DNA from: Pseudomonadota bacterium
Lineage (GTDB): Bacteria; Bdellovibrionota; UBA1018; CAIMNF01
Assembly: GCA_027486675.1 (NCBI GenBank)
Contig: JAIXOQ010000017.1
Span: 123,986 to 187,985, forward strand
DNA: 64,000 nt
Direction: 5' to 3'
Positions 4,662 through 45,408 of this stretch are shown here, piece after piece; positions within the stretch are counted from its first letter, which is position 1; each line of letters starts with the position of its first letter. The position numbers were made by a program, and so were the translations under genes. The notes beneath the pieces are model-generated. The model worked only from the letters and a program-made list of their open reading frames with translations. It made no database searches and was not told where the DNA came from.

Positions 4662-6089
4662 TTAAGCAGCCTTTGCACTGACAAGGGTCAACACTTCACC
4701 GGCAATTTCACCCAGCGGACGCACCTGTTCAGCGGCTTTCAGTTTAATCGCGGCCTGCGGCATTCCAAACACCACACAGCTTGCTTCGTCCTGCGCAATG
4801 GTCCGAGCGCCTTTTTGTCGCATTTGAAGTAACCCCTTCGCACCATCTGCGCCCATACCCGTAAGAATCACGCCGACAGCTTTCTTGCCAACAAGATCAG
4901 CGACCGACTGAAACAACACATCGACTGAAGGCCTATGGCGATTCACGGGTGGCGCATCCTTCACCTGCACCTGGTATCCGCTGGGTCCGCTTCCACGGAC
5001 TAGAGACATCTGAAATCCGCCAGGTGCAATGAGCACACGGTTCGGTCGACATTCGTCTCCATCAACCGCTTCCTTCACCTCAAATGCACAGAGATCATTC
5101 ATACGTTTTGCAAAGGCCAAGGAGAAGACTGCTGGAATATGCTGAACAATCACAATGGGAGGGATGCCACTTGGGAGACGGGTAAGCACCTGACGCAGAG
5201 CTTCAGTTCCACCTGTTGAAGAACCGATTGCAATGAGATTTGAAAGATTCATTGCACCCATCGCAGTCACTGGCTTTTGTAGTGCCGATTTTTGAGAAAA
5301 AGGCGTGATCGCCTTAACTTTCGCGGACGAGGCCGTTTTGACTTTCTCAACAATCAAAGGAGTCACTTCCGCAAGCTCATCTAAGGAAGGCTTTTGAATG
5401 TAGTCCACCGCACCCGCCTCTAAGGCCTGAAGGACATGGCCACTCTCCGCCATACTAATAGAACTAATCATCACCGTTGGAATCTGGAACTTAGGAAGAT
5501 AGCGTTTCAGCAGCGTAACCCCATCCATCTCAGGCATATGGATGTCTAGGGTGATCACATCAGGCTTCAATCGAGCGATCATCTCTTCAACCTGCGACGG
5601 CCGTTCTGCGCAACCGACAACATCAAGATCGACCTCAAGAATTCGAGTCAAGATATGTCGTATCGTCTTTGAGTCATCAACGATCAAAACCCTCTTCCGT
5701 TTTTCGGGGAGCATCGCCTGAGGCGCGTTTGCAGAAGCTTGTGCTTCACCTAAGCGAACCCGGCCCGAATCCGTATAGAAGTATGCTTCAAGACTTTTTG
5801 ATTCCGATTCCTTCGTTACGAACGAGACCTCAGGAAATTCTCTCCGGAAATCTGACGACAATGAGCGTACAGATGCACTCGCTCCAATAATTTTGGCTTT
5901 GACTTCCTTTTTGACCGCGATGGATTTAACACTCTTGATGAGTGCACGGAGACGATCCATCGTGCTTGCGCTCGAATCTTGAAGGACCATTCCAGCGCCA
6001 CCCACGCCACCTTCAACGTAAGCACAGACAAAGACTCCACCCTTTAACTCATACCTGAGGACCTGTACTGAAAGGGCAGGATTGGTCAT
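4662..6089 (-). CDS. cheB: Chemotaxis methylesterase CheB: CheD-like N-terminal domain, receiver domain, then catalytically intact methylesterase
   Basis: REC: LIVDDSKTIRHIL...DVITLDIHMPEMDG. Methylesterase: GSSTGGTEAL...IVIVQHIP...LTGMGADGAKG...DEASCVVFGMP (Ser/His/Asp triad motifs present). The N-terminal approx. 130 aa align to CheD (GGVFVCAYVEGGVGGAGMVLQDS...KAKIIGASASV...FYTDSGRVRL). Confidence 0.85.
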   Translation of the reverse strand: MTNPALSVQVLRYELKGGVFVCAYVEGGVGGAGMVLQDSSASTMDRLRALIKSVKSIAVKKEVKAKIIGASASVRSLSSDFRREFPEVSFVTKESESKSLEAYFYTDSGRVRLGEAQASANAPQAMLPEKRKRVLIVDDSKTIRHILTRILEVDLDVVGCAERPSQVEEMIARLKPDVITLDIHMPEMDGVTLLKRYLPKFQIPTVMISSISMAESGHVLQALEAGAVDYIQKPSLDELAEVTPLIVEKVKTASSAKVKAITPFSQKSALQKPVTAMGAMNLSNLIAIGSSTGGTEALRQVLTRLPSGIPPIVIVQHIPAVFSLAFAKRMNDLCAFEVKEAVDGDECRPNRVLIAPGGFQMSLVRGSGPSGYQVQVKDAPPVNRHRPSVDVLFQSVADLVGKKAVGVILTGMGADGAKGLLQMRQKGARTIAQDEASCVVFGMPQAAIKLKAAEQVRPLGEIAGEVLTLVSAKAA

Positions 6090-7990
6090 TTTTTGCCCTT
6101 AAATAGCTCATCGTCTGAATGATAGATAAAGCTTGTATATGGAACGAAATGAAGTGCTTTCGCACGAATCATTTTATACGTTCCATCGAGTGCCTTCTGA
6201 CTTCCGATGTCCTCTAAGATAAGACCGGCTTTCGGAAGCTGCTCAAGCTTGCTTAAGACATCTTTACCCACACTTGCAAAAACAAGTGTAGAAACATTCT
6301 TTCCAATAGCAAGCAACTTGAGTGTGCTGAAGGCTGTATCAAAATCTCCAATATAAAACGTCCCAAGCTTGAAATCCTTGATCCCGTCTACTATTGGACT
6401 CAGTGGAACGGGAGAGACGGGCTTTAGCCCTTCGACTACTTTTGGGAGAATTGTGCTTGGACCATGCACAAGAAAGACGGTTGCAGGCTGTGGACCATTG
6501 CACTGTTTTAGAATGGCAGTGCATTTTTCCTTGTCCCCTATGCCTAAGACAACTACCCGAAGCTGATCTTCACTCCATTTACGGTCAGGTTGCTTCTGAA
6601 AGGACCGATCAAGCTCAAGGGCTCTAGCCGTTTGAGAAGGATCAGGTTTCAGTGCACACCTCAGTTTGAGCTTAATTTCATCGGCCTTATCCGCAAGATT
6701 CGCGAGCGTCGGTTTCTCTATGTAGTCCCTGGCCCCTAATTCAAGAGTTCGCATCCCGACTCCTGAGTCCTCACGGGCCGCGGAACTCAGCATCACAACA
6801 GGAGGATGGCTTGCGGAAAAGTTTTTTTCCAGGTACTCCACTCCGTTTTGCTCTGGCATATGAATATCTAAAGTCATGACATCAATAGGTGTCTTATTTA
6901 GGAATTCTGCCGCCTCAATTCCATTCTTTGCCGTCCCAACAATTTCAAACCCTGCCTCTTTCGTGAGCACCTTCTTGAGAAGTGCCAAGATAGTAGGCGA
7001 ATCATCCACACAAAGAACGCGAATATTTTTCTCAGGCGCTGCTATAGAAATAGATTGCTGACTTGCCGTCGGGATTGCCTTCCCCGCCGGAGTGGGGACC
7101 AAAGATTCCTTTGGCTTGCTACTAGTTGCACCTATATGGCCATAAATGGATGGGCCAATATATTTCACTGGAAGATCGAGGCCGTTTAAGGTCTCTGACA
7201 TGCCGGTAAAGAGGATACCGCCTGGATGCAGACATTGAAGTAGCCCTTTTGAGACTTCCTTAATTTGATCATGAGTAAAATAGATAAAGACGTTCCTACA
7301 AAAGATGAGATCAAACTTCCTACCGCGTACTTTTGACAAATCAAACAAATTGATCACGTCAAATTTACATTTTAATTTTATAGAATCTTTTGCTTTAACA
7401 AACGCTGCAATGTTTCCGGTCCCCCTCGAAAAGTGGGAGCCTACATAAATAGAGGGGGCTTCCTTGATCTCATCCCATCGATAGACACCATTCTTTGCGA
7501 TTGCAACCGAATCTGGATCCACATCACTCCCATAGATTTCAAAGTCCATGGACGGGTCAATCGTCTTCAGGTGGTAGGAAAGAAACATCGAAATTGAATA
7601 CGCCTCTTGCCCACGACTTGAGGCAGCGGACCAAACAGAGATTTTTCGATCGCCCCTGGCTTTGGCCTCCGCTACAACTTTCGCCAAACCGGTCCGCTCT
7701 AGATATTCAAAATGGGAAAACTCCCGAAAGAAGAAGGTGTGATGCGTTGTGAGCAAAGAAACAAGCGCTGCACCTTCTGACTCTTTGTTTTGATTGAGAT
7801 GCTCTCGATAAGCCTGTGGAGTGGCAAGCCCTAGGTCGAGCATGCGTTTTCCAATTCGGGCCGAAACCATCGCTTTTTGCTTGTCACCGAGTTGAATGCC
7901 CGCGATTTTTTGCACAATGCTTGACACATGTGCAATGAGATCGTCATCCAAAGCAAGACCACTGATTTGCTGAGCGGTACTACTACCCAT
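6086..7990 (-). CDS. cheR: Chemotaxis methyltransferase CheR fused to a receiver domain and a degenerate CheB-like domain
   Basis: N-terminal CheR (TTHHTFFFREFSHFEYL; SAM-MTase VWSAASSRGQEAYSISMFL). Central REC (VLCVDDSPTILALL...DVMTLDIHMPEQNG). C-terminal approx. 190 aa CheB-like, but GxSTGG is replaced by GIGDKEK and GMGxDG by SVGKDV. Overlaps cheB by ATGA. Confidence 0.85.
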   Translation of the reverse strand: MGSSTAQQISGLALDDDLIAHVSSIVQKIAGIQLGDKQKAMVSARIGKRMLDLGLATPQAYREHLNQNKESEGAALVSLLTTHHTFFFREFSHFEYLERTGLAKVVAEAKARGDRKISVWSAASSRGQEAYSISMFLSYHLKTIDPSMDFEIYGSDVDPDSVAIAKNGVYRWDEIKEAPSIYVGSHFSRGTGNIAAFVKAKDSIKLKCKFDVINLFDLSKVRGRKFDLIFCRNVFIYFTHDQIKEVSKGLLQCLHPGGILFTGMSETLNGLDLPVKYIGPSIYGHIGATSSKPKESLVPTPAGKAIPTASQQSISIAAPEKNIRVLCVDDSPTILALLKKVLTKEAGFEIVGTAKNGIEAAEFLNKTPIDVMTLDIHMPEQNGVEYLEKNFSASHPPVVMLSSAAREDSGVGMRTLELGARDYIEKPTLANLADKADEIKLKLRCALKPDPSQTARALELDRSFQKQPDRKWSEDQLRVVVLGIGDKEKCTAILKQCNGPQPATVFLVHGPSTILPKVVEGLKPVSPVPLSPIVDGIKDFKLGTFYIGDFDTAFSTLKLLAIGKNVSTLVFASVGKDVLSKLEQLPKAGLILEDIGSQKALDGTYKMIRAKALHFVPYTSFIYHSDDELFKGKK

Positions 7991-23414: not shown

Positions 23415-23756
23415 CTAAGCTTTCTTCGCGTCCACTTTGCGGTTAAATGTACGGCACCAGCCTTTAGCGGCGACTTCTCCCGTAGGAAAAATCGTGCATT
23501 TTCCATTCACCTTATCTACGGGGGAGTAGAAGGTGCAGTTTGCACAGACATCGTCATTCTTCTTTTTGAGCTTTTTCCACTCGTCGCTTTTCGTCGCGTC
23601 GTGGACGTAAGCCAAACTCAAAGCCAACCCCTTTTTTTCCTCAATGAGGGCGGAAAATGCCTCCCGAATCTTAAAAAATGGGGAAACGGCTACGGCTCCA
23701 ACAACCAGACCGAGCCTCTTCAAAAATTCTCTACGCTGCGTAAGATTGTCTTTCAT
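23415..23756 (-). CDS. High-potential iron-sulfur protein (HiPIP), Tat-secreted
   Basis: Twin-arginine signal (RREFLKRLGLVVGAVAV). Four Cys in HiPIP spacing (CANCTFY...GKCTIF...GWCRTF). 113 aa. Confidence 0.75.
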   Translation of the reverse strand: MKDNLTQRREFLKRLGLVVGAVAVSPFFKIREAFSALIEEKKGLALSLAYVHDATKSDEWKKLKKKNDDVCANCTFYSPVDKVNGKCTIFPTGEVAAKGWCRTFNRKVDAKKA

Positions 23757-23817
23757 TAGTTTAAACGTTTCCTTTCCCTTTCTATTCTACCCAAGATCGC
23801 TGACAATTAACCTTCGA

Positions 23818-26800
23818 ATGAAAGTACCGAGCCTGCAGGACCTAAAGCGCCTTGGTCCGCGACAACTGCGCCAAAGTCTTGAACCCTCTGCGTTAGAGAG
23901 GGGAGCCCAGTTTTTGCGCGAAGGCGCTTTTGATGGAATTGAAATTAGTCAGATGGGCTCATCCGGCCAACGGATCGAGTTTCAATTTGTCGATCCTGCC
24001 TACCCGCAGGCGCGCTGCAGCCTAGACGTTGAGTCCCCAGGCCGCCCCGTCTATACAGCGTGCGACTGCAATCACGCTTCTCACGGAATCTTCTGCAAGC
24101 ACCAAGCGGCCGCCGTTTTGGTCTGCGCCTATGCTCTAGGTGCAATCGATGAATTTGCCCGTCTCCCCGACCCCGTCCTTAAGAAAATTGATACCGTGGC
24201 TCCCGAACTGGAGCGCCTCAGGGCTCAGAGAGCCTCTGTTGAGGCAGCGGCTGCCAAGCAGAATGCTCCCGCCCTTCAGGCCATCATCCTCCTAGATCTC
24301 ATTGATATTGAGGCCCTTGAGCTCGAGCAAGTCGTTTTCACCCGCACATTTGAACGCCGTCCTCGGGACACTGCCTACGTTTCCTACCTTCGCCCTGGGG
24401 ATTTTGTTGACCTGGGTCGGACCCTCTATCTTTTCGACGATGGGACGCTGTGTCGATCCCGGGATCTTCCCTTCTTTGCGGGGGTGACCGATTTAGCTCC
24501 CGAGCTGATTCCTCAGTCGGAAACGCTCGCATCCTGGATCGCGTCCATCTCTCGGTTTCAACAGCTACGTGCACTTCCTGTGTTCCTTTCAAGCGTCGCT
24601 CGCTTTATGGAAGACCGTCGTGCAGTGCGTCTAAATGGCGTATTACCCCATGTTCCAGATGAATTGGAACGAGCACTCATTGCAGAACAACTCAAGGGTG
24701 AACCTGAAAAAGTTCGCGTCCGATATGAAGTTCCTGAAGCCCTCTGGTTACTGGGTGGCACCTTTGCTTTGCACCGGAAAGACGGAACGCTTTCACCCCA
24801 CCGCTTAGAGCGGGGCGGCCGAGCTCCAAGCGAAGGAATTTTTACGGCACCTGCAGAGCTTGCGAAATTTTCGCATCAACATGGCTCACTTGGCCTCAGG
24901 CTGACTGGAAAACAGAAGGTGCTTTCAGCAGATGAAATCACTCCTTGCGTCGAGCTGACTGATGCAGGGGAACTCTGTTTGACCCTGATCGCAAAGGATG
25001 GCTTAAAGCTCAATGGGTTAACTCCAGCGCAGATGCCGCTCCTTCGTGCGGGTCAAGAGGGTTTAAAATGGCTGATTCCTGAGGATTTCGAGCGCGAAAT
25101 CGAAGGAAAAAAATCCGCAAAGACCCCCACTCATCTCAAGCTCTTTAAACATGCGGGTGTTGCGCTTGTGGTGATTGAAGATTGCCTCTCCATGCTTCTT
25201 GCCGGCACACCTTGGAACGAAGAACAACAAACGAGGCTTGAAGCTAAGGTCGCAATCCTACTTCTTCGCTTAGAGGGCACAGTCGCCGGAGCATTACCTA
25301 AGACGCTGGAATCCATGACCTCCCGCGGAGCACTTGAGATCTTCAGAAAAATTCCAAACGCAATTCGTGATCTCACTTTAAACGCGCCGACGCTGACCTG
25401 GACCAATGGCCTTTGGATCACGATCCCTTCGTGGGGAGCGGTACAAGCTCGCGTCCTCCTTCACTGGCTAAGGGCTCTGTTTGAACTTCGCGGCGGCGAT
25501 CTTTGGTTAAGATCCCGTGATGCGTGGGTTGACCCTGAAGTCGTCGGTCTTTGGGATTCTGACCCAGGCGTAAAGGTCGGACCAAAACATTGGCTGAGAT
25601 TTCAAAATAAGAAACGATTTGAACTCGATCTTTTTCTGAAGGCGTTTTCAACGCTCCCTCAATTTGGTATCGGCATTCGTCTAAACGAGCTCCCAGTTGA
25701 AGAACTCACGGATTCAGACTGGAAGTCTGACTTCATGCTGAGCGAGATCGAACGCGCACCTGGCAAGATTGATTGGTTTGAGCTTCACCCTCGCTTCTAC
25801 CTCCGGGGTGCAGAAATTTCTGAGACACAGGCAAAAGAGCTCGCTGAACGTGGGATGCTCCGCCACAACGGTAAGGTTTTCCGCGTGGCTTCGTCTCTCC
25901 TTCCTCAGATGGAAGAATTGGCGCGCTTCTGGGAACAAATTCAACCCCTCACAGAAGCGAAAGCCACAAAGAAAAAAGCAGGCGAGGAGCGGATCTATCC
26001 ACTGGCCCGTCACGCAACTCTTGAGCTTTTGTTGCTGCGGGCTTCAGGCTTGCCGATCCGCGGTGGTCAGCACTGGGCAAATGTTTGTCAGTTTTATGAT
26101 CGTTTAGGCGAAGAACGTCCTCAATTTGAGATTCCAAAGACCTTCAAAGGGGAACTGAAGCCCTATCAGGTCCGTGGAGTCGAATGGATCCACGATCTTT
26201 ATCAACTGCGCATGGGCGGAATTCTTGCCGACGATATGGGTCTTGGGAAAACAGTCCAAACCTTAGCTTTTTTAGAACACCTGCGCCTCACCGGAGAACT
26301 CGGCCCCACCCTAGTGATCGTCCCTACTTCGCTCACCTTCAACTGGAAGAACGAATGCGAACGCTTTACACCTGGGCTTTCGATGCACCTCTTTCAGTCG
26401 CGTGCGATTGCTGACTATCAAAATTTTATTACGAAGAACCCTGGAAGCGTAGTCCTTGTGACTTATGGACTTCTCGCTGAACACGCAGAAATGTTCCAGC
26501 AAACTGCCTGGAATATTCACATCTACGATGAGGCGCAACATCTAAAAACCCTCACAGCAAAAAGAACGACCGCATCACGTCAAGTTCGCGCTGATTTTAA
26601 AATCTGTCTCACAGGAACGCCGCTTGAGAATCACTTAGGTGAGCTTTTCTCTCTTGTGGATCTCGTGGTGCCTGGAAGTTTAGGCTCGCTCGATCGTTAC
26701 AAACGGACCTACCTCACTTCATATGCGCCGGACCCTGAACGAGTGCGTTACCTCAAGTTAAAGACAAGGCCTTTGATTTTAAGGCGTACTAAGCGCGCGA

Positions 26801-27570
26801 TTCTGACTGAGCTTCCTGCAAAAACAGAAAGCTCCATGAAGATTCCGTTTACCGAAAAGCAACTCAAGATCTACCGCGATATTGCACTGTCTTGGAACTC
26901 CAAGGTGCGTGAGATCGTGGGTAAGGATGGCGAAGCCAAATCCCAGATGATCATGCTGACCGCGCTTTTGCGATTGCGCCAGGCTTGCTCTGCTCCTTCG
27001 GCGATTCCAAACGTGGAATACACGGAAACTCCGCCGAAAGTCTCCCTCTTGATCGACACCTTGTCTGAAGTGATTGAAACCGGTGAAAGTGCCCTGGTCT
27101 TCACTCAATTCATGAGCACCTTCCAAATCATTGCTAAAAAGCTCAAAGAGGCTCAGATCCCATTCTTTGAACTACACGGGAAGGTCTCGAGAAAAGACCG
27201 CGAAGATCGAATCACTTCGTTCCAAAACGCACAAGGCGGCACAGTCTTCTTGATGACTCTAAAAACCGGGGGCGTGGGCTTAAACCTCACCAAAGCAAGC
27301 TACGTCTTCCACCTAGAGCCTTGGTGGAACCCTGCTGTGGAAAACCAGGCAACCGATCGAACTCACAGGATTGGCCAAACGAAGCCGGTACAGGTTTATC
27401 GCTACATTATGAGCGATTCCGTCGAAGAAAAAATCGAGATCTTAAAACAGCGAAAGTCTGCGCAATTTGATGCGCTCTTTAGTGATGCGGAATCGACAGA
27501 TGACCTCTCCGGCAGCTCGGGTCGCTTGTCGCACTCAGACTTCGAGTACCTGCTTGGATTTGGAAAATGA
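23818..27570 (+). CDS. SNF2-family helicase with N-terminal SWIM zinc finger
   Basis: ORF from 23644, but the ATG at 23818 (MKVPSLQDLKRL) avoids overlap with the HiPIP gene. SWIM motif CDCNHASHGIFCKHQAAAV. SNF2_N (LKPYQVRGVEWIHDL...DDMGLGKTVQTLAFL, DEAQHLK). Helicase C (LMTLKTGGVGLNLT...QATDRTHRIGQTKPV). Confidence 0.85.
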   Translation: MKVPSLQDLKRLGPRQLRQSLEPSALERGAQFLREGAFDGIEISQMGSSGQRIEFQFVDPAYPQARCSLDVESPGRPVYTACDCNHASHGIFCKHQAAAVLVCAYALGAIDEFARLPDPVLKKIDTVAPELERLRAQRASVEAAAAKQNAPALQAIILLDLIDIEALELEQVVFTRTFERRPRDTAYVSYLRPGDFVDLGRTLYLFDDGTLCRSRDLPFFAGVTDLAPELIPQSETLASWIASISRFQQLRALPVFLSSVARFMEDRRAVRLNGVLPHVPDELERALIAEQLKGEPEKVRVRYEVPEALWLLGGTFALHRKDGTLSPHRLERGGRAPSEGIFTAPAELAKFSHQHGSLGLRLTGKQKVLSADEITPCVELTDAGELCLTLIAKDGLKLNGLTPAQMPLLRAGQEGLKWLIPEDFEREIEGKKSAKTPTHLKLFKHAGVALVVIEDCLSMLLAGTPWNEEQQTRLEAKVAILLLRLEGTVAGALPKTLESMTSRGALEIFRKIPNAIRDLTLNAPTLTWTNGLWITIPSWGAVQARVLLHWLRALFELRGGDLWLRSRDAWVDPEVVGLWDSDPGVKVGPKHWLRFQNKKRFELDLFLKAFSTLPQFGIGIRLNELPVEELTDSDWKSDFMLSEIERAPGKIDWFELHPRFYLRGAEISETQAKELAERGMLRHNGKVFRVASSLLPQMEELARFWEQIQPLTEAKATKKKAGEERIYPLARHATLELLLLRASGLPIRGGQHWANVCQFYDRLGEERPQFEIPKTFKGELKPYQVRGVEWIHDLYQLRMGGILADDMGLGKTVQTLAFLEHLRLTGELGPTLVIVPTSLTFNWKNECERFTPGLSMHLFQSRAIADYQNFITKNPGSVVLVTYGLLAEHAEMFQQTAWNIHIYDEAQHLKTLTAKRTTASRQVRADFKICLTGTPLENHLGELFSLVDLVVPGSLGSLDRYKRTYLTSYAPDPERVRYLKLKTRPLILRRTKRAILTELPAKTESSMKIPFTEKQLKIYRDIALSWNSKVREIVGKDGEAKSQMIMLTALLRLRQACSAPSAIPNVEYTETPPKVSLLIDTLSEVIETGESALVFTQFMSTFQIIAKKLKEAQIPFFELHGKVSRKDREDRITSFQNAQGGTVFLMTLKTGGVGLNLTKASYVFHLEPWWNPAVENQATDRTHRIGQTKPVQVYRYIMSDSVEEKIEILKQRKSAQFDALFSDAESTDDLSGSSGRLSHSDFEYLLGFGK

Positions 27571-28469
27571 GACGCGAGATCGAGGGTTTCCTCGATCACT
27601 TAAAACTTGAGGCCGGTGTTTCTAAACACACCATCGACGCCTATACGCGCGATCTGAAGCAATTTGAAGACCTGTCCGGCGTTCAGTCCATTGGCGAAAT
27701 CAATACTGGGCACGTACGGGATTTTTTGGCACATCTTGCGAAGAAGTCTGCATCCCCACAAACACAGCAACGTAAATTATCCGCGCTGCGCAGTTTCTTT
27801 CTTTTCTCCCTCAAAGAGGAATGGTTAATCCTGGATCCGACCGAAGGAATCTCTGCGCCACCGAAAGACCGGACTCTGCCGCGGGGGATTTCCCCGGAAG
27901 GGGTGCGCGCACTGCTTGCAACAGTGATGGATGGTTTTCCGTATCCTTCAGCATTACGTGCCGCGCTCCAGTCGCGAGACAGAGCCCTCATTCTTTTGCT
28001 TTATGCTTCAGGCATTCGGGTCAGTGAAGCGACAGGAATTGATCTCAGCCAACTCGATACGGAAGCCCTTTGGGTGAGAGTGATTGGCAAAAGATCTAAA
28101 GAAAGAATTGTTCCCTATCCTCCGCTCGTGAATGAGGCCCTTCTGCATTACGTAAAAGATTTTCGTGGGACCTTAAATCCAGCAGACCAAGCCTTATTTC
28201 TCAATCATCGTGGCCGAAGGATGTCACGCCAAGCCGTGTTCTTGCTGCTGAAGGATCTTGCCCGCCAAGCAGGCATGGGCGCGCCTCCGAGTCCTCACCA
28301 ACTGCGCCATACTTTTGCAACCGAACTCCTGCAAGGGGGTATGGACTTAAGAACACTGCAATCCCTATTGGGACACGCGGATTTAAAGACAACGGAAATT
28401 TACACCCATGTTGCGAACGAAGAGCTAGCTCGGATGGTGGATAAACACCACCCCAGGGGTGGATCATAG
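27567..28469 (+). CDS. Tyrosine recombinase XerC/XerD family
   Basis: Core-binding N-terminal domain. Catalytic R..H..R..Y region (LRHTFATELLQGGMDLRTLQSLLGHADLKTTEIYTHV). Start overlaps the SNF2 stop. Confidence 0.8.
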   Translation: MRREIEGFLDHLKLEAGVSKHTIDAYTRDLKQFEDLSGVQSIGEINTGHVRDFLAHLAKKSASPQTQQRKLSALRSFFLFSLKEEWLILDPTEGISAPPKDRTLPRGISPEGVRALLATVMDGFPYPSALRAALQSRDRALILLLYASGIRVSEATGIDLSQLDTEALWVRVIGKRSKERIVPYPPLVNEALLHYVKDFRGTLNPADQALFLNHRGRRMSRQAVFLLLKDLARQAGMGAPPSPHQLRHTFATELLQGGMDLRTLQSLLGHADLKTTEIYTHVANEELARMVDKHHPRGGS

Positions 28470-33936: not shown

Positions 33937-34013
<77 letters not shown>

Positions 34014-34534: not shown

Positions 34535-35779
34535 ATGAAAACAGAGAACCTGATCATTCCATCCGAAATCCCATGGGAAGAAATTAAAGGCAAAGCTCTG
34601 GAGGAATTGTTGTATTGGCTTCTCGATTCCATGGGAGCAAAAGATCTTGAGTGGCGAATCGGCGGAAAAGGAAATGGGACAGCTGACCAGGGCAGGGATC
34701 TTGAGTGTGTCTTCTACACGCAGACTCCAGAAGGGGAATTACTTCGGGAATCCTGGTGGATAGAATCTAAGGGACGTGTCGGCAAGGTAGAACCAGACGA
34801 AGTCAAAGGCGTAGTGCTGAATGTCGCAGGAAAAGCTTCAGTTGATGTTCTGGTGATAGCGACAAATTCAAATTTTTCGAACCCAACGCGCGATTGGGTG
34901 AAAGAATGGCAAAGAGGTCATCCGAGACCAATCATCAAACTCTGGGAGCGCACAGAGCTCGAAAAATTCTGCTCAAAATTCCCTACAGCTGTAATGCGAC
35001 TCTACTCAAAAGCACTAAGCACTCAAGGAAGATTGGAGGTGGTGAGATCAAGATTCTGGAATTACGCGTTATTAGCTGACGCGCCAACTCTCGAAGCACT
35101 CTGGAGTAAACATGAGGTACTAATTTCACCTGAGGCCCTCGCGGCGCTGATTACATCTGAGGCCGGAAATGGAAGTTTATCTAAGCGTCCCTGGGGCATG
35201 CGAGTAGATCCAGATACTTTGGGAAAAACTCTTATAAATTCACTCTTAAACTTAATATTTCTAGTCTTTCGCGCGGGGGACATCGGAGTAAGGCAGGAGC
35301 CATTTATAAAAGCATTATCTTACCAAGTTCTATGTGCGATGGACCGCTTGGGAAGTGATTATGTTGCAACATTACTCAAGGAATGGAATTTTGATGACCG
35401 AGCATTGCCACAAGAAATCAAAGAATTAATTTTGGGCCCAGTTATAGATACCTTAGTCACCGAAATTCGCGATGTTTGCACCAGTGATTGTTCACGGGTA
35501 ATGACCAGTCCATTGGAGTTATCGGAGCGAGATATAGAACTATACTGGTTTCGATTGTCGACGAATGGTTCTAACGAAAACAAAAAAGAGAAGGTGCTTA
35601 GTATGGAATCCCTTAAAACACCTTGCAAAGTAGGTTTTTGCGTAAGCGAGGAAGTTGGCTGTCCAGTGAATGGCGATAAGTACCGGAAGCGCGACACCTC
35701 AAAACTGCTTTTTGACATAAAAAAAATTGTTGACTTCAGAAAATCAGAAATAACCAAAAGTAGCCCATCATTGCCCTAA
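34535..35779 (+). CDS. Mrr-like restriction-endonuclease-domain protein with approx. 270 aa C-terminal region of unknown function
   Basis: N-terminal approx. 130 aa match the Mrr catalytic PD-(D/E)xK pattern (GKGNGTADQGRDLECVF...WWIESKGRVGKVEPDEVKGVV...VLVIATNSNFS). No motif recognised in the remainder. Confidence 0.5.
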   Translation: MKTENLIIPSEIPWEEIKGKALEELLYWLLDSMGAKDLEWRIGGKGNGTADQGRDLECVFYTQTPEGELLRESWWIESKGRVGKVEPDEVKGVVLNVAGKASVDVLVIATNSNFSNPTRDWVKEWQRGHPRPIIKLWERTELEKFCSKFPTAVMRLYSKALSTQGRLEVVRSRFWNYALLADAPTLEALWSKHEVLISPEALAALITSEAGNGSLSKRPWGMRVDPDTLGKTLINSLLNLIFLVFRAGDIGVRQEPFIKALSYQVLCAMDRLGSDYVATLLKEWNFDDRALPQEIKELILGPVIDTLVTEIRDVCTSDCSRVMTSPLELSERDIELYWFRLSTNGSNENKKEKVLSMESLKTPCKVGFCVSEEVGCPVNGDKYRKRDTSKLLFDIKKIVDFRKSEITKSSPSLP

Positions 35780-35959
35780 AATCTATTTGCCACCTTCAAA
35801 TCAAACACCACTTGCTCAATCGCCACTAATGGGCACCTCCGACGCCGGCCACTGAACCATTCCGAAGAAGGAGTCATGTCCTTTGTCGATCGATAGAACC
35901 GTCCCCGAAGACATCGCGGTCGCAATCCTAGCCGTCGCTTCCGGCTCATGTGTTGGGCC

Positions 35960-37576
35960 CTATTTCGCACGCTTCAATGAGACTGGCACTGCAGAGGCGC
36001 AATGAGCGAATGCTTTCGCTCGCTCTCTGAAGTCTGAAGACCTCGTGAAAGAGACATTACTTTTAACATCGCCTTTGTTCTTCATCGCCTGAATGGCATT
36101 TGCAATGAGGTTATAGTCCTGCGATACGCAGATCCGCGAATATCGCTTTTCGTCCGGCGTTACACCAGCACAGTTCTCAAAATATGAGACAGAAACATCC
36201 AAAATCGAATAATGCTGTTTATTCAAATTATAGACTTGGGTTTCAAGTGAAATGAGCGCTTCATTCTGTGCCAACTGCGTTCGGTAATACTCGATATCGC
36301 TCTTTTGGCTCTCAAGCTTCATGTCACCAATCGCTTCCAGAATCAAAACGTCGAGCTTAGCCATCCTTAAAGAACTCGACTCTTCTTCGGAGACCTTGCC
36401 ATTGCGACGCTGCTTTTCTTGCAACTCCGAGATGAAAAGTTTGGCTTGAGCAATCTGGTCTATCCTCTCTTTCTCGGCAAACTCGCGCTCAAGCTGTTGA
36501 CGCTCCTTCTCTGCGTCGCCCGTATACTCGCGAATCAAGAGTTCGTTTGAGGAAAGCGGAGCTTTCATAGCTATAGCATCGCCGCGACCTATGGACTTTG
36601 CCTCCGATTGCATCTGTTGCACAATCGTCGGCTTATAAAGGCGTTGGTCGCGATCGTGTTCACGAATCTTAGCTTTGAGTCTCTCAGCCTCAATTTTGTA
36701 TTCTTTAATCTTTTTTTCAGTCGACGCTAGCGCTTTGTCTCGCTGAGTAACAATATTTTGCTTAATCTCTTCACGGATCTTTTGCGCCGTGTCATAGACG
36801 GCGCGGTAAGTGCCGCCTTTCACTGAGTGAACCCCAAGACTACTTAGCATAGCCAGATCGCTCTTTTCGACTGAGAAGCCCTTGCCAAGTGCGTCGAGTA
36901 CGTTCAGGGATAGGCTAACGGAGGTTCCCACAGTGATGGTTTCATTTTCAGGTGTCGTCGACCACGCACAAACAAATTTCTGTTGGTCGGGAGAAAGCTT
37001 ACTGACCCAGCGGGTAAAGACCCCACTAAAGCAGGCATTGCTAAAGATCCTCAGAAATACTCCCCGTTCAGCAGCGCGGATCGCAAGATTCTCTAGTTCA
37101 TTGGTCGTTGTGCAGTCTTCACGAAATGTTCGAACGCCGCCCTTGGAGCCACCGTGGGTGTCAAAAAAAACATCGAGGATACTTCCCTCCTCCTGCGTCT
37201 CCACGGCGTTGTGCAAAGGATTCCAAAATTCTTGTACTTCGCGATTCCCTTCGACGATTCCAAATTCGATTGCCTCCCGAACTTGTTCTGCTTTTATGAG
37301 GTCAAAGTAGTGCGATGCAATTGCGCCCGTATCAAATGAGATGAAGTTGCCACCAGTTCGACTTGCATACTTTAGTGCAGCAGCACCAAATTCGTTTCGG
37401 GATTGGATCTCGCTTTTATCTGCCGCGCCTTGATTTAGAAAAACGAAGTGGGCCGGGGCCGCAGTTGCAACACACCCGACCATCAGAACGGAGGTAAGAA
37501 AAATAGTACCGACTGGCGACATATGCCGCATTATAGTTGACATAAATGGTAATGTAAAGATGATTTTTGTGTCCAT
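35960..37576 (-). CDS. Secreted/lipoprotein clan-CD (caspase/legumain-like) peptidase-domain protein with long C-terminal coiled coil
   Basis: Signal peptide with lipobox-like LMVGC. His-Gly ... Ala-Cys dyad context (FFDTHGGSKGG ... LRIFSNACFSGVF) as in C13/C14 peptidases. C-terminal half is heptad-rich (EKKIKEYKIEAERLKAKIREHD...). Confidence 0.45.
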   Translation of the reverse strand: MDTKIIFTLPFMSTIMRHMSPVGTIFLTSVLMVGCVATAAPAHFVFLNQGAADKSEIQSRNEFGAAALKYASRTGGNFISFDTGAIASHYFDLIKAEQVREAIEFGIVEGNREVQEFWNPLHNAVETQEEGSILDVFFDTHGGSKGGVRTFREDCTTTNELENLAIRAAERGVFLRIFSNACFSGVFTRWVSKLSPDQQKFVCAWSTTPENETITVGTSVSLSLNVLDALGKGFSVEKSDLAMLSSLGVHSVKGGTYRAVYDTAQKIREEIKQNIVTQRDKALASTEKKIKEYKIEAERLKAKIREHDRDQRLYKPTIVQQMQSEAKSIGRGDAIAMKAPLSSNELLIREYTGDAEKERQQLEREFAEKERIDQIAQAKLFISELQEKQRRNGKVSEEESSSLRMAKLDVLILEAIGDMKLESQKSDIEYYRTQLAQNEALISLETQVYNLNKQHYSILDVSVSYFENCAGVTPDEKRYSRICVSQDYNLIANAIQAMKNKGDVKSNVSFTRSSDFRERAKAFAHCASAVPVSLKRAK

Positions 37577-37766: not shown

Positions 37767-37928
37767 GACAGATTGGTCGGGTATTTACTTGGGGAGGCAA
37801 TTTTAGAATTCCCCAATCCTTTTCAAGAGATACGGCCATTTTCGGTCTAACGGCCTTTTTTCACCAAAGCTGGCACGCCTTTGCATCTCAGTAGTTCAGA
37901 AACACAAACCGAGAAAAGGAGAGGCTTA

Positions 37929-38747
37929 ATGAATCAGAAGCCAGGAATACAGGACCGGATGATCGAGGAAAAAGATGCGACCCCGCAATACAACAGCGGC
38001 CAACCGATGCCGCCTGATACATATGACGCAATATTGTTCACAGCGAAAACAGGATTTATCAGCGCTGGGATCTGGAGGCGATACTTCGGATCAGGAAATG
38101 ACAGATCAAAACGGCGAACCCTACGCCGCCTCTGCGAACGCAGCTACTTCCGCCGACATCACAGCGGGCAAGCGAAGAATGTATTTTTACTTGGAGCAGA
38201 AAGCGTCCAATGGCTTAAGTCTCGCGGATACGGATTTGTGAGAAGCGCCTATCTTGCACAGTTGGATCACGATCTCATCCTAGCGGAATCAGTTCTTCGT
38301 CTTGAACTCAAAGGATACTGCGACAGTTGGTGGACAGAAGCTGAACTGAAAATCGGCAGTGGCCTGGCCTATGCTGTGAAACCTGCGACCGGTTCACAGA
38401 AGCATCCAGACCTTCTGATTACTTTGAGCACGGCTGGCGGAGATCAGAAAGTAGCCATCGAACTTGAGCTCACTCAGAAGAGTGCTCAGCGCTACCAAGA
38501 CACGGTGAATGCCTACGATCGGATGGAAGACCTCTCAAAAGTTATTTTTGTGGCCAGGACGGACTCCGGGATGTTTGCAATAAAAAGAGCGTTCCAGACG
38601 CACGGCTCGGCGCGCCTCCGTGCGAAGGTGCTTTTTGCAGAGTTATTGGATTGGCACGTAGACCCGGGCAGAGCACCTCTCAGCGGGATGGACGGCACGA
38701 CATCGATCGCTGAAATCTGCAAGAACCAGAGGCTGACAGCGGCATGA
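37929..38747 (+). CDS. Hypothetical protein: N-terminal winged-helix-like region plus PD-(D/E)xK-like core (replication-relaxation-like)
   Basis: ORF from 37881. The ATG at 37929 has a strong RBS (AAAAGGAGAGG). Putative nuclease motif HPDLLITLS...VAIELELTQKS (D...E-x-E...K). Confidence 0.4.
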   Translation: MNQKPGIQDRMIEEKDATPQYNSGQPMPPDTYDAILFTAKTGFISAGIWRRYFGSGNDRSKRRTLRRLCERSYFRRHHSGQAKNVFLLGAESVQWLKSRGYGFVRSAYLAQLDHDLILAESVLRLELKGYCDSWWTEAELKIGSGLAYAVKPATGSQKHPDLLITLSTAGGDQKVAIELELTQKSAQRYQDTVNAYDRMEDLSKVIFVARTDSGMFAIKRAFQTHGSARLRAKVLFAELLDWHVDPGRAPLSGMDGTTSIAEICKNQRLTAA

Positions 38748-39406: not shown

Positions 39407-39523
39407 ATTGATTCCCAACTAAATCGCTATGTTCATTGACCTTCAGATCTTAGCGATCCTTCCATGCACCTCGTTCCGAAGTTACGCCCCTCTCATTGTC
39501 GCCTGAACCCAACTTGGAGTAAT

Positions 39524-39787
39524 ATGGACAAAGAACTGATAAACAGTTCGTCGCTCTCTGAAAAACAGAATTCTTGTAAAACACATGATGAAGTTGTTTC
39601 GTTAGAAGTCAGCAAATGGCTCACATCTAGCGAAGCCGCCCTTTACCTTCGGATCTCGAACTCCAGCTTAAAAATGATGGTGTATCGAGGTTCAGTTCGA
39701 GTTTGGAAGCTAGGAAGGCGAAATCGCTTTCTACGCGAAGATCTCGATCGACTCATTCGGGTACCTTCAAACAAAAAGGAGACCTAG
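39524..39787 (+). CDS. Excisionase-like HTH DNA-binding protein
   Basis: ORF from 39464. The ATG at 39524 has an RBS (GGAGT). HTH_17/excisionase-like segment WLTSSEAALYLRISNSSLKMMVYRGSVRVWKLGRRNRFLREDLDRLI. Stop is immediately followed by the int start. Confidence 0.55.
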   Translation: MDKELINSSSLSEKQNSCKTHDEVVSLEVSKWLTSSEAALYLRISNSSLKMMVYRGSVRVWKLGRRNRFLREDLDRLIRVPSNKKET

Positions 39788-41041
39788 ATGGCACAGAAGG
39801 ATTTTATAAAGGACGGAATACAGAAACTCATCATCTACATCGCAGTAAACTGTAAGGAGTACCCAGGAGGAAAGATCCAAAGGAAAAAGACCGTCACCGG
39901 TATTGCCAAAGGATCGCCGAAGGCGAACGCAATCGAGCGAGAAATGATCCGAGAAACGGAACGCGAGGCTGCGCAAAGAGAAGCCGTTGGCACCAACTGG
40001 GAAGCACTTGTAGGATTGTACGAACTTTGGGCTCGCGACGAAGAAAAGAACGGTCGCTGGGTTCAAAGCAAGCAAACCCTCTTTGATGCTGTACGCTCTT
40101 TACACAATTGGACCAATGATTGGTACAAACTCCCTGCCGCAAACATTACGGCTACCGATGTCACCAAGCTATTTCACAGAATGAGAGCTGCGGGTGTATC
40201 GGAAACCACAATTGGCAAAATGCGGGGGGATATTCGGAAAGTCTTTGAATTTGGTTTGCTGTTTGATCACATTCGCGGTGTCCGTAATAACCCGACAAAT
40301 GGGGTGACGATAAAAAGTCGAAAGCGGATGAGGACAGAGATTCTCAGCGAAGATGAAATCAAAAAGCTACTTTCCTATGCAAAGTCCTACGAACCAAGCT
40401 GGCACCCAATTTATGCCTTTGCCGTGTACACAGGGTGTCGTAACGGGGAATTGTACTCGCTTAAATGGAGCGATATCGATTTTCAGGAACGACTGATTAC
40501 GGTTCAACGGTCCTACAACAAAATGTTTAACGAAGAGAAATGCACGAAGACCGGCGAGTGGCGCCGAGTCTCCATCTGCGACCCTCTTTGGGAAATTGTT
40601 TTAGAACTGAAACGAAACCATGATCACGATCTTGAACGTGGAGCCTGTAAGTATCCGGGCTACGTTCTTCCGAGACCGGGTGTATGGCAGAACGGAGAAC
40701 AGGCGAGAAAGCTTCGAGAGTTTTGTGAAGAAATCGGAATCACACCGATCTGCTTCCACACTCTTAGGGCTTGTTTTGCGACTGAACTTCTAAGGCGCGG
40801 TGTAGACGTTCCTAGCGTGATGCGGGTTGGAGGCTGGAAGAGCCTAAAAACAATGATGCATTACGTTCGTTTATCCGGTATGGCAGACAAAGGGATCACT
40901 GATCCTTTGGACTACCGATCGGAAGACCCCCAAGCGACCAATCGCAAGCTTTTGTCTGCGGTTGGAGAATCGTTTCGATCAGGGGGCGGAATGGGTGCAG
41001 AGATTATCCCACTGCCGACTCGGAAACTTCCGCATCGGTAA
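39788..41041 (+). CDS. Tyrosine-type integrase (phage integrase family)
   Basis: SAM-like N-terminal domain. Catalytic R...HxLR...Y region (FHTLRACFATELLRRGVDVPSVMRVGGWKSLKTMMHYVRL). RBS AAGGAG upstream. Confidence 0.85.
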   Translation: MAQKDFIKDGIQKLIIYIAVNCKEYPGGKIQRKKTVTGIAKGSPKANAIEREMIRETEREAAQREAVGTNWEALVGLYELWARDEEKNGRWVQSKQTLFDAVRSLHNWTNDWYKLPAANITATDVTKLFHRMRAAGVSETTIGKMRGDIRKVFEFGLLFDHIRGVRNNPTNGVTIKSRKRMRTEILSEDEIKKLLSYAKSYEPSWHPIYAFAVYTGCRNGELYSLKWSDIDFQERLITVQRSYNKMFNEEKCTKTGEWRRVSICDPLWEIVLELKRNHDHDLERGACKYPGYVLPRPGVWQNGEQARKLREFCEEIGITPICFHTLRACFATELLRRGVDVPSVMRVGGWKSLKTMMHYVRLSGMADKGITDPLDYRSEDPQATNRKLLSAVGESFRSGGGMGAEIIPLPTRKLPHR

Positions 41042-41297: not shown

Positions 41298-42587
41298 TTA
41301 CCCCTGGCGCGGGGTCGCAAAACTCTGTTGATCCCACTCTGCTATCCACTCCAGAAGCACTTTCTCAAAGAGTTCTATTCCCTGCTTTAATCCGCTCGAA
41401 GTGCACGGTCCGAAGTCTCCAGGCTTACAACGAGGAAAAATATATCTATGGGCGTCTGCCTTCCAGTTCTTCTGCTCCGCAAAATAGCGCCGCACGCTCG
41501 GTCGATCAAAGGCAAAGACTTCGTCATAATCATCTTCGTGACCGTAATGGAAAACCACATCCACATAGCCAGTCCGTACATCCGGATCAAGCCTAGGGTT
41601 ATCCAGAACTGCATTCACTTTCCCTTGTAGCCGGACACGTTCCCCAGGCTTAAGTGATTCGATCTTTCGGCGAATCTGGGTGATGTGCTGAACATCGTGG
41701 GCCGGTACGCCCGCGCCGAACATAGTGCCATTGTCAATCTCTACCGTGCTCGTGTCTTCCGGGAAGCCGATAAAATGAACGTCAGAAGCAATTACCGTTC
41801 GAGCGATGTCCTCCATGGACTGATTCAGAAACGTTGGCACGAGAAACGTTCCGGGCAGGACTCCACTCAGTTCACTTTCGTATAATTCTATCGAAGAAGA
41901 CGAAAGCTCATGACGGCGGTAATCGAAGAATGACTCAGAAATGAAACCAGCACCTCTCCTCTCGTAGAGCGCATAGTCGGATGCCGAATTTTTGTCCTTA
42001 ATCACTTTGAAGTAATATGAGTACGAAGAGGGACCTCTCAAAATAAGAAACTCTATTTCCGGATCGCCTATTTTTCCACGGATCCTAAAATGGTCAAAAA
42101 AGTCTGGCTGATCCCAATTGAACGAAGAGCCCATGACGATAGAAAAATCAACTGCCTTCCTGATCAGCGAGATTTCCTGCTCGGAAAGCAATCTAAACGA
42201 GGACTCGAAAGTGCGATTCGCGGAAGCAAACAGAGTGGCCCAGGCTCTAGCACGGATGGAGATATTCGGTGAATTGAGTGCTAGCAGCGAGAAGTCTCCG
42301 TAAGCGCTCTTGAGCCGGCCCCAAGTATCGAGTCCGATTGGAGACGAGATTTGTGCGTTCACATTCTTTACTTCGGCAGCCTCCAAAAACGCGTTGTCGG
42401 AAACGGCTTCATCAACAAGAATACGGCAAAGCCATGTGGGCATTGCCCATGCGCTATCGCTGAAGCATACAAAGAAGACGATGAGACATATTCCGCGGGA
42501 CCTTGGCTTCACAACGGTAGGAAACATACTAAACATTACCATTTGGGTCAAATAATCACCGACCCCATCTCTTGCAACTTGGGCCAT
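41298..42587 (-). CDS. Hypothetical protein (429 aa)
   Basis: Long ORF with an N-terminal hydrophobic segment. No confidently recognised domain. Confidence 0.35.
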   Translation of the reverse strand: MAQVARDGVGDYLTQMVMFSMFPTVVKPRSRGICLIVFFVCFSDSAWAMPTWLCRILVDEAVSDNAFLEAAEVKNVNAQISSPIGLDTWGRLKSAYGDFSLLALNSPNISIRARAWATLFASANRTFESSFRLLSEQEISLIRKAVDFSIVMGSSFNWDQPDFFDHFRIRGKIGDPEIEFLILRGPSSYSYYFKVIKDKNSASDYALYERRGAGFISESFFDYRRHELSSSSIELYESELSGVLPGTFLVPTFLNQSMEDIARTVIASDVHFIGFPEDTSTVEIDNGTMFGAGVPAHDVQHITQIRRKIESLKPGERVRLQGKVNAVLDNPRLDPDVRTGYVDVVFHYGHEDDYDEVFAFDRPSVRRYFAEQKNWKADAHRYIFPRCKPGDFGPCTSSGLKQGIELFEKVLLEWIAEWDQQSFATPRQG

Positions 42588-42758
42588 TTAGATCAGCTCA
42601 CTTACGAATCTCGAAAGGCGATCTAACCGTTTCGAAGAAGGAGTCATGCCTCATGTCACTCGACAAACTCATTCCGTTAGCAACTACTTCTGCGGTCCAG
42701 GCCGAGGCTCCGTACGTTAGGCAGCAGACGAGTACTTTCATCGTCGCAAGTTCATGGT

Positions 42759-43476: not shown

Positions 43477-43884
43477 ATGAATCGATTCATCAATACCCTA
43501 ATGGTGGGCTTCGCACTTGTTCTCACGCAGGTAGCCACGGCCATAACCCTAAAAGACATGGTGAAGTGCGAAGAGTTCCCAGATCCTCCGTCAGGACTCA
43601 TTCAATCGATCCGCGAATGGGATACACTGCCTCCCCATCAACGCATCAACGCTGCCTTCTATCATGATGCGAAACACCACGTGATCAAACGCAGCTTTGA
43701 TGTGGTGCGAAACCCAAACGGATTGCCCAGTGACTACAAGTCCATTTTTCTGGAGGCTGCTAAACGCATTCAAGAAGACTTGCCTGAGGTCTACTCAACA
43801 TATTACCCCCTCATCGGTGAACCATTTCTTTCTGAAATCGAAGTGGCAACAACTCCGACCGGCGAATTGCTTGCGTATCAGTAG
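43477..43884 (+). CDS. Small secreted hypothetical protein
   Basis: Signal peptide (MNRFINTLMVGFALVLTQVATA). 135 aa. No recognised domain. Confidence 0.4.
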   Translation: MNRFINTLMVGFALVLTQVATAITLKDMVKCEEFPDPPSGLIQSIREWDTLPPHQRINAAFYHDAKHHVIKRSFDVVRNPNGLPSDYKSIFLEAAKRIQEDLPEVYSTYYPLIGEPFLSEIEVATTPTGELLAYQ

Positions 43885-44153: not shown

Positions 44154-44699
44154 ATGAAGGCCAAACTTGACGAGCTACGCAAAAGGCTAGACCACTTCAG
44201 CGCTCGGAGTGATTTAACGGTAGAACAGATTGCATGGGGCCATTGTATCGAAGAAGCAATACTCGCGGGCGAGCAAGGAAATTATAGCGTCGGTGCATTA
44301 GTAACGGATTCTAAATTCCGTATTCTCGGGCGCGGACGGAACGCGGTCTTTAAACCAAAATTCCGCTCCGAGGCGCATGCTGAGATGATTGCGATTTCAG
44401 CGGTTGAAACGGCTGCATCCGTAGTAGATAAGAATAATCTGATTTTGTTTTCGACCCTTGAGCCGTGCCTCATGTGCACAGCGAGGATTTTGCTATCGGG
44501 TATTGGCCAAGCTGTCTTCCTAAAACGCGATCCCACTGCTGGCATCTGCGATCGGCTTCACATGTTACCGCCCAACTATCAGGATTTAGCCAAACGGGTT
44601 CAGTTCCACGAATACAATAATGATCTGGAACTCAAAGAGATCTCTTCCGAGCTTTACAAAATTGGCGAAGAGCTTTGGTCACGGGAGTACGGGCTCTAA
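44154..44699 (+). CDS. Nucleoside/tRNA-adenosine (TadA-like) deaminase, CDA family
   Basis: Zinc-binding motifs HAEMIAI and PCLMCTARI (H-A-E ... P-C-x2-C). 181 aa. Confidence 0.7.
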   Translation: MKAKLDELRKRLDHFSARSDLTVEQIAWGHCIEEAILAGEQGNYSVGALVTDSKFRILGRGRNAVFKPKFRSEAHAEMIAISAVETAASVVDKNNLILFSTLEPCLMCTARILLSGIGQAVFLKRDPTAGICDRLHMLPPNYQDLAKRVQFHEYNNDLELKEISSELYKIGEELWSREYGL

Positions 44700-44769: not shown

Positions 44770-45408
44770 CTATTTGGCGTTTAATGCAGTTTTGAGTTCC
44801 TGCATTACCTCTTTTTTGAGCGCCAGTAGTTCATCAAGTCCAGGAAGCTTCACAAATGCGAGCGAGAAGATCAGTTCATTTCGACCCAATGACTCTTCTT
44901 TTAGTTTGAAATCTACTTGGCAGGCTTTCCTGCCGTATTCTGGATCCTCACTCATTTTGGCGTAATGATCGATCCGCTCTTGCTCAAACGCGTTGAGACT
45001 ATAGTCGGTTTCTTCCAAGGAGTAGAGATTCTTAGCGTAACGAGTTTTCAACTTCTGAGTAAATGGCATCAGATTCCGTAGAATCTTCTCTGCCTGAGCA
45101 ATGTTTGGTATGCCTCGAAGTTTGAATTCGCGGTCCGATTTCTCAGGATCGACGTAATCCCTACGCATGGGATCGCCGTATTGAATAATGAACAATTTGT
45201 CCTCTGAGATTGCGCTTCCTTGAACTGAATCACTCACCCAAGCCTCCTTTGGCAAAAACATGCAAAGCACGACAAACACTACACGAGCAATTCTCATCAA
45301 CTGATCTTCAACCACTGATCGGAAAGCGCAATAACTGACTTCAGTTCCATGATCATGCTTTGTAGCATATTGGATTCTGCCAGCCATCCTCAGCATGCCC
45401 TCGGACAA
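44770..45408 (-). CDS. Hypothetical protein (212 aa)
   Basis: Long ORF with an N-terminal hydrophobic stretch. No recognised domain. Confidence 0.35.
   Translation of the reverse strand: MSEGMLRMAGRIQYATKHDHGTEVSYCAFRSVVEDQLMRIARVVFVVLCMFLPKEAWVSDSVQGSAISEDKLFIIQYGDPMRRDYVDPEKSDREFKLRGIPNIAQAEKILRNLMPFTQKLKTRYAKNLYSLEETDYSLNAFEQERIDHYAKMSEDPEYGRKACQVDFKLKEESLGRNELIFSLAFVKLPGLDELLALKKEVMQELKTALNAK

Follow-up and report, generated by a model that had tools for sequence, protein, structure and literature searches.

We analysed a 64,000-nucleotide stretch of bacterial DNA (the window; contig JAIXOQ010000017.1, positions 123,986 to 187,985, GTDB lineage Bdellovibrionota) and concentrated on one gene of its minus strand, referred to below as the target. 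The sequence-only reading of this DNA had placed an open reading frame (ORF) at 35960-37576, and the frame is present as described, lying on the minus strand and encoding 538 residues. Our best reading assigns its product to a new sequence family, a very small one, whose fold and His-Cys dyad are of the type seen in clan CD of the cysteine peptidases. The gene and its protein contain the following features:

35960..37576, minus strand: target ORF, 538 residues counted from the first ATG, complete and with an intact reading frame
37531 (start), minus strand: NCBI-annotated version of the target, beginning at M16, 523 residues
37530..37558, minus strand: sigma-70-like promoter match, TTTACA-17-TATAAT, 11/12 to the consensus and a consensus match only
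37472..37531, minus strand: predicted type II (lipoprotein) signal peptide, MRHMSPVGTIFLTSVLMVG followed by C, with the lipobox L-M-V-G-C, the predicted lipidated Cys35 and Val at +2
36881..37450, minus strand: predicted caspase/haemoglobinase-fold (clan-CD-like) domain, residues ~43-232, from an AlphaFold2 (AF2) model built on a 3-sequence alignment
37148..37168, minus strand: FFDTHGG, with the predicted catalytic His141 and the invariant Gly142, at the C-terminal end of predicted β3
37022..37042, minus strand: SNACFSG, with the predicted nucleophile Cys182 after the invariant Ala181, three residues past predicted β4
36950..36976, minus strand: FVCAWSTTP, conserved block 3, spanning β5 and the beginning of loop L5; its Val, Cys203, Trp205 and Pro are invariant
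36176..36808, minus strand: charged α-helical region, residues ~257-467, four segments with a partial heptad pattern, from a low-confidence single-sequence model
35963..36175, minus strand: C-terminal region of ~70 residues with three Cys (469, 483 and 526) and no detectable homology

The motifs FFDTHGG and SNACFSG and their spacing, on which the sequence-only reading had based its comparison with clan CD, were confirmed. FFDTHGG occupies residues 137-143, with the His at 141, and SNACFSG occupies residues 179-185, with the Cys at 182; the His-to-Cys distance of 41 residues equals that between H148 and C189 of human legumain, and the motif residues are invariant in both homologues that we found (P0003 and P0004). 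The human legumain and caspase-3 sequences used for comparison were validated against Protein Data Bank (PDB) entries (4fgu/4aw9 for legumain). A three-way alignment of the family shows T-H-G, the G-G-x-R after the His, A-C and V-C-x-W-x-x-x-P to be invariant throughout. The block FVCAWSTTP looks like FLYAYSTAPG of caspase-3 and NVYATTAANP of legumain, a likeness seen by eye only. Two positions ahead of the nucleophile (Cys-2), the target has Asn180 and both P0003 and P0004 have Asp. In caspase-7 (Gln184) and MALT1 (Asp462), the residue at Cys-2 contributes to S1 specificity (PMC4357240), and the Asn of the target versus the Asp of its relatives hints at differing P1 preferences within the family.

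When 1.84 billion representatives were searched exhaustively with phmmer, a single relative emerged, P0003 (248 residues), with a borderline E-value of 8e-4 and an alignment that covers exactly the N-terminal domain. P0004 (360 residues) is 73% identical to P0003. Pairwise BLASTP of the target gave an E-value of 3e-8 with P0003, and of 9e-11 with P0004 at 27% identity across 214 residues; overall, the two relatives are 24-27% identical to the target. Orthologues lacking the His or the Cys would have spoken against the dyad, and both homologues retain the two residues. Since the motifs are kept at this level of overall identity and the ORF is intact, the domain appears to be under purifying selection. 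A word-indexed search of 5.8 billion clusters with the target alone as the query returned only the target itself, the profile of the three sequences recovered just the three family members from the same 5.8-billion database, and the family profile found zero further members in GTDB genomes, JGI metagenomes and IMG/VR. The family is thus of extreme rarity: about 15 billion proteins include three members, all in one lineage.

The relatives P0003 and P0004 adjoin the glycine-cleavage genes gcvT and gcvH. Parts of the window have identical counterparts among the Logan contigs of the sequencing run SRR16126844, and P0003 is found in the same run, on a different contig from the target and with a compatible composition. 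The target is therefore perhaps a diverged, element-borne paralogue of a chromosomal gene, and one genome may hold both the chromosomal paralogue and the diverged copy carried by the element. On the Logan contig that encodes P0003 (L001, SRR16126844_28009, positions 1877-2938), P0003 and a downstream ORF of 88 residues lie in one frame, with a single TAA and 48 nt between them. Together the two match the 360-residue P0004, so a nonsense codon interrupts the chromosomal homologue, unless the split is a deliberate one.

The minimal clan-CD fold consists of the parallel strands β1-β4 in the sheet order 2-1-3-4 with helices α1-α3; β3 and β4 carry the catalytic His and Cys, respectively, at their C-terminal ends, and the Gly next to the catalytic His is structurally conserved in every clan-CD family (PMC4357240). 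The AF2 model of the N-terminal domain, whose numbering was converted to that of the full-length protein by adding 15, had a predicted template-modelling score (pTM) of 0.58 and a mean predicted local distance difference test score (pLDDT) of 59.5, with values of 70-84 in the core strands. It runs from β1 (43-50) through an α-helix (54-73), β2 (77-82) and further helices to β3 (133-140), immediately followed by His141. Beyond the His there follow an α-helix (155-171), β4 (174-179), Cys182, an α-helix (184-193), β5 (202-206) and a last α-helix (216-231). The modelled order of elements along the chain is that of the minimal clan-CD fold, for which the sheet order and the closeness of the His and Cys in space are presumed. 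The His also precedes the Cys, and in the model the two residues stand at the ends of β3 and β4 respectively. A Gly adjoins the putative catalytic His as it does across the clan, within the T-H-G that is invariant in 3/3 proteins. Clan-CD enzymes also have a conserved aromatic residue on loop L5 and S1 determinants on α1/L1, L4 and L5; in the family of the target, the invariant Trp205 comes directly after β5 and Cys-2 is Asn or Asp, positions that may be structurally equivalent.

In a Foldseek search of BFVD with the model, the sole match at E<=1e-3 (E 2.3e-4, TMq 0.47) bore the name "Peptidase C14 caspase domain-containing protein", and in the search of the PDB, which gave no significant match, the top TM score among the 50 matches listed was that of caspase-6 (TMq 0.41, TMt 0.49). 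The single-sequence AF2 model of the mature protein (pLDDT 44) was too poor for a fold search.

At the level of sequence, by contrast with the fold, the protein could not be placed in a known family. The target had no meaningful match in Pfam, NCBIfam, PADLOC or PHROGs; hmmscan against Pfam-A at E<=10 gave only a spurious Caudo_TAP match (E 8.3), and hence nothing for the models of C11, C13, C14, C25, C80 or CHAT. PDB sequence searches with the whole protein, with the N-terminal domain and with the 3-sequence profile returned nothing, and no legumain in particular. When the domain was compared directly with human legumain, BLASTP aligned the His-to-Cys segment with the His on His148 and the Cys on Cys189, at a non-significant E-value of 0.46. 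Similarly, hhalign of the family profile with legumain covered 80 columns with the His and Cys in register, which is likewise not significant (E 0.45, probability 0.1%), and with caspase-3 it gave an E-value of 0.36 over nine irrelevant columns. With E-values of 0.36-0.46 and no Pfam match, membership of C13 or C14 is not shown. The resemblance to clan CD (C13/C14) put forward in the sequence-only reading therefore stands for the predicted caspase/haemoglobinase fold and for the placing of the dyad residues where β3 and β4 end in the model, but not for sequence membership of either family. Clan CD comprised eight families as of 2025, and the bacterial protease YabG was recently placed in it as a candidate family by a His-Gly...Ala-Cys dyad and a predicted structure, without sequence homology to other families (PMC12445089). 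The eight families have the fold and the residue order in common and not the sequence, and a target that cannot be placed in any of them by sequence is in keeping with this and with the case of YabG.

The protein is predicted to be exported. Read from M16, it begins with a positive n-region, followed by a hydrophobic core and a lipobox, and the Cys is at position 20 (35 when counted from M1). The lipobox pattern used, [LVI][ASTVI][GAS]C, is of the PROSITE PS51257 type. The earlier prediction of export via a signal peptide ending in LMVGC is supported, in that the sequence given above fits this pattern. All three family proteins carry export signals; those of P0003 and P0004 are of the cleavable signal peptidase I type and have no lipobox. 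Judged from these N-termini, export is a trait of the family, and the lipid anchor, with its presumed lipidation, is specific to the target within the family of three. The Sec pathway, Lgt and signal peptidase II would process the signal peptide and acylate Cys35. Because the catalytic domain starts only 8 residues past Cys35, it would be held near a membrane of the diderm cell, and a diderm host is indicated by an OEP/TolC-like gene within the window. Val at +2 would not act as a Lol-avoidance signal if the rule of E. coli applies.

The promoter match bears on where the protein begins. It sits within the longest target ORF, with a -10 box that overlaps the ATG of M16, and transcription may hence begin near the ATG of M19. 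A start at M19 would leave a leaderless or near-leaderless mRNA and a signal peptide without a positive n-region. Given the position of the promoter relative to M16 and M19, the true start codon of the target is uncertain.

The part of the protein behind the catalytic domain was modelled as four long helices over ~210 residues (single-sequence model, pLDDT 44). We scored heptads crudely in 28-residue windows sampled every 10 residues and compared them with shuffled sequences. The score is elevated only in residues 261-320 and 341-470, with a break at ~321-345, and of the sampled 28-residue windows only two, with first residues 281 and 441, score above the 99th percentile of the shuffles. The sequence-only reading had described a heptad-rich C-terminal half with a coiled coil of ~250 residues. 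A partly heptad helical region is indeed predicted, but its size was overstated: with the break and only two windows past the 99th percentile, the coiled coil amounts to ~200 residues, is segmented and weakly supported, and the last ~70 residues are not heptad-like. The helical region is specific to the target and is found neither in P0003 nor in P0004. Homology of the three-Cys tail to the Cys-containing tails of P0004 and of the ORF downstream of P0003 was considered and rejected, as Smith-Waterman scores equalled the shuffled null (p 0.37-0.59) and MAFFT alignments were inconsistent. The helical ~200 residues together with the C-terminal ~70 residues would most likely form a stalk or oligomerisation module, or else a removable inhibitory C-terminal prodomain as in legumain.

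Around the target gene we found the following features of a candidate small integrative element and its left flank:

33937..34013, plus strand: tRNA-Met (CAT), flanking the variable region
34535..35779, plus strand: Mrr_cat/PDC-M58A-like nuclease of 414 residues, with an N-terminal Mrr_cat domain (E 2.4e-5) and a PADLOC PDC-M58A match (E 7e-8)
35855..35893, no strand assigned: left-hand copy of an imperfect direct repeat of 39 nt, candidate att, 67 nt past the target stop codon, with the 16-nt exact core CGAAGAAGGAGTCATG
37881..38747, plus strand: MobC-family replication-relaxation gene, divergent from the target, a weak match (30 bits, E 2.4e-7, curated cut-off 200)
39464..39787, plus strand: excisionase-family HTH_17 DNA-binding protein (HTH_17, TIGR01764, E 3e-9)
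39788..41041, plus strand: tyrosine recombinase (integrase; Phage_integrase E 3.8e-21)
41298..42587, minus strand: ORF of 429 residues with a signal-peptide-like N-terminus (…KPRSRGICLIVFFVCFSDSAWA), beside the right repeat copy
42625..42663, no strand assigned: right-hand copy of the direct repeat of 39 nt, candidate att, pairing with the left copy

The two repeats align with a score of 41, compared with 20.8±2.2 (maximum 31) in the shuffled null, and enclose a 6.8-kb segment that contains the target, the MobC-like gene, the excisionase, the integrase and the 429-residue ORF; a further ORF of 134 residues sits between the MobC-like and excisionase genes. It is plausible that the repeats are the att pair of a small integrative element, of which the target is a monocistronic cargo gene, and the element is possibly mobilisable. 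The setting on a mobile element, proposed earlier, is supported by the excisionase, integrase and MobC-like genes, the tRNA-Met and the flanking direct repeat. A repeat of the 3' end of tRNA-Met was sought as an att site and none was found, and the base composition is unremarkable. Genome scans yielded no close relative in which an empty site might be seen; the pseudouridine synthase encoded nearby matched only spirochaete MAGs, at 25% identity. The 429-residue ORF, which has no match in Pfam, NCBIfam, PADLOC or PHROGs, may encode a second exported cargo protein. The Mrr-like gene, in which ~270 residues after the Mrr_cat domain have no match, is situated between the left repeat copy and the tRNA-Met and perhaps forms a defence islet of its own. 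A two-gene defence system made of the target and this nuclease was set aside: the two genes are convergent, the target has no PADLOC match and the nuclease is outside the repeats.

Just past the element, two ORFs have no NCBIfam match, one of 135 residues with a clear signal peptide (43477-43884, plus strand) and one of 212 residues (44770-45408, minus strand); near them is a cytidine/deoxycytidylate deaminase-like gene (44154-44699) with a weak match to Bd3614-like deaminases. The window as a whole comes from the chromosome of a diderm bacterium and includes a chemotaxis cluster, the OEP/TolC-like gene and an SNF2 helicase gene, and an Rfam scan of it gave two tRNAs and nothing else. In the chemotaxis cluster, a CheR methyltransferase is fused to a response-regulator receiver domain (6086-7990, minus strand, 634 residues), and in CheB (4662-6089, minus strand, 475 residues) the receiver domain begins at residue 134, preceded by a stretch without a Pfam match; these CheR- and CheB-type genes adjoin CheA, CheW and MCP (methyl-accepting chemotaxis protein) genes. 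The SNF2-family helicase (23644-27570, plus strand) has 1308 residues, of which ~830 at the N-terminus are unannotated. The start of a XerC/D-like tyrosine recombinase gene (27567-28469, plus strand), which encodes Phage_int_SAM and Phage_integrase domains and is present on an identical Logan contig (L007), overlaps the end of the SNF2 gene.

Taken together, the target is probably a cysteine endopeptidase of the clan-CD type that is exported and lipid-anchored and represents a new small family; catalysis, lipidation and localisation are what we infer for it. It may, as the sequence-only reading proposed, act against competitors or prey or in processing. The dyad would consist of His141, at the end of β3 with the clan-wide Gly next to it, and the Cys182 of the Ala-Cys motif that follows β4. 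The P1 residue would govern cleavage, as it does elsewhere in clan CD, and the pocket that receives this residue would be formed by α1/L1, by L4 with Asn180 (Asp in the relatives) and by L5 with the invariant Trp205.

Several results weigh against this assignment. The AF2 model is only moderately confident, with pLDDT <50 at 105 of its 275 residues and three sequences behind it, and strand β6 is not predicted in the N-terminal domain. None of the Foldseek matches in the PDB is significant, and generic flavodoxin-like folds lead by E-value. A significant sequence link to any clan-CD family was not found in Pfam, NCBIfam, PDB sequences or hhalign. Outside the proposed dyad, one more His (H43) and one more Cys (C203) are invariant in all three proteins, so that conservation by itself does not pick out the dyad, and support for the coiled coil is weak. 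It is conceivable, though we consider it unlikely, that the N-terminal domain is a generic three-layer α/β domain of the flavodoxin-like or vWA-like kind and no peptidase at all. The His and Cys residues would then serve in metal or cofactor binding, in redox chemistry or in a structural disulfide of the periplasm, and the protein would act in binding or as a scaffold, anchored in the envelope and bearing a helical stalk. The sequence-only reading had named a non-peptidase fold as the outcome that would count against a protease; the predicted fold fits peptidases best.

Even with a clan-CD fold and dyad in place, the main reaction might not be hydrolysis. By analogy with the C13 GPI (glycosylphosphatidylinositol) transamidase and the plant asparaginyl ligases, the protein would be mainly a transpeptidase or ligase that joins or cyclises envelope proteins at the membrane, which we regard as very improbable. 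A still slimmer chance is left for a catalytically dead or decaying orphan, carried as cargo of a degenerate element without a current function. The extreme rarity of the family (three among about 15 billion proteins), the in-frame stop that breaks the chromosomal relative P0003 relative to P0004, and the lack of a clean att repeat involving the tRNA would all fit such decay, but the 538-codon ORF is intact, the signal peptide, the lipobox and all conserved motifs are kept at 24-27% identity, and a strong promoter-like site is present.

Starting again from the preferred reading of a lipid-anchored endopeptidase, a more far-reaching scenario can be drawn for the element, which we rate as quite improbable. 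The element would carry a stand-alone extracytoplasmic "weapon or shield" module, in which the protease matures other exported cargo or clips host surface proteins against phages or competing elements. The protease itself would be the founder of a ninth or tenth clan-CD family, having moved from a chromosomal housekeeping paralogue of the P0003/P0004 type at gcvT/gcvH onto the element and acquired its lipid anchor and coiled-coil stalk on the way. The candidate substrate would be the exported 429-residue product of 41298-42587, by a parallel with the action of fragipain on Fab1 and BFT.

If active, the target would represent a new clan-CD sequence family that was found via fold and dyad geometry alone. 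A lipobox, a minimal caspase-like domain and a coiled-coil-like stalk in one protein is an architecture not described for clan CD, and a catalytic domain of ~190 residues without a predicted β6 could serve as a minimal model of the caspase/haemoglobinase fold. Exported clan-CD proteases may be open to exchange as cargo, as the location of the gene on an integrative element of 6.8 kb hints. The practical importance is limited, as exported, lipid-anchored clan-CD proteases are known in bacteria and the family has three members in one lineage.

Among the known systems, the gingipains are cell-surface enzymes. The C11 enzymes thetapain, iotapain and fragipain, which are bacterial and exported clan-CD proteases, offer the nearest functional analogy to the lipid-anchored target. 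Thetapain and iotapain of Bacteroides thetaiotaomicron are described, in their mature form, as lipoproteins that a lipid tail tethers to the membrane (bioRxiv 10.1101/522870), and fragipain of B. fragilis processes two exported protoxins, BFT and the bacteriocin Fab1 (PMC8406203). To call a surface-tethered clan-CD protease unusual, as the sequence-only reading did, was therefore too strong in view of these lipid-tethered C11 enzymes and the exported, toxin-activating fragipain; since thetapain and iotapain are already lipid-anchored members of the clan, the target is a variant and not a new kind.

The similarity to the C13 enzymes legumain and the GPI transamidase PIGK is not significant in sequence. 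The S1 residues of legumain (Arg44/His45 on α1 and Glu at Cys-2) are not conserved in the target, which has Asn180 at Cys-2, and where legumain has its LSAM (legumain stabilization and activity modulation) prodomain, the target has a coiled-coil-like region, together with a lipobox anchor and no predicted β6. The C14 proteins (metacaspases, orthocaspases, paracaspases and caspases) are typically cytoplasmic, whereas the family of the target is exported; the target has no PF00656 match and lacks the p20/p10 linker of C14. YabG is likewise a clan-CD candidate by its dyad and predicted structure, but it acts in the sporulation of Firmicutes, in the cytoplasm or forespore, has neither a signal peptide nor a coiled coil and is unrelated to the target in sequence. 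Compared with all of these, what is new here is a sequence family of extreme rarity without a detectable tie to the eight clan-CD families, and a compact domain with legumain-like spacing that is joined to a lipobox and a coiled-coil-like region of ~200 residues and is carried on a small integrative element.

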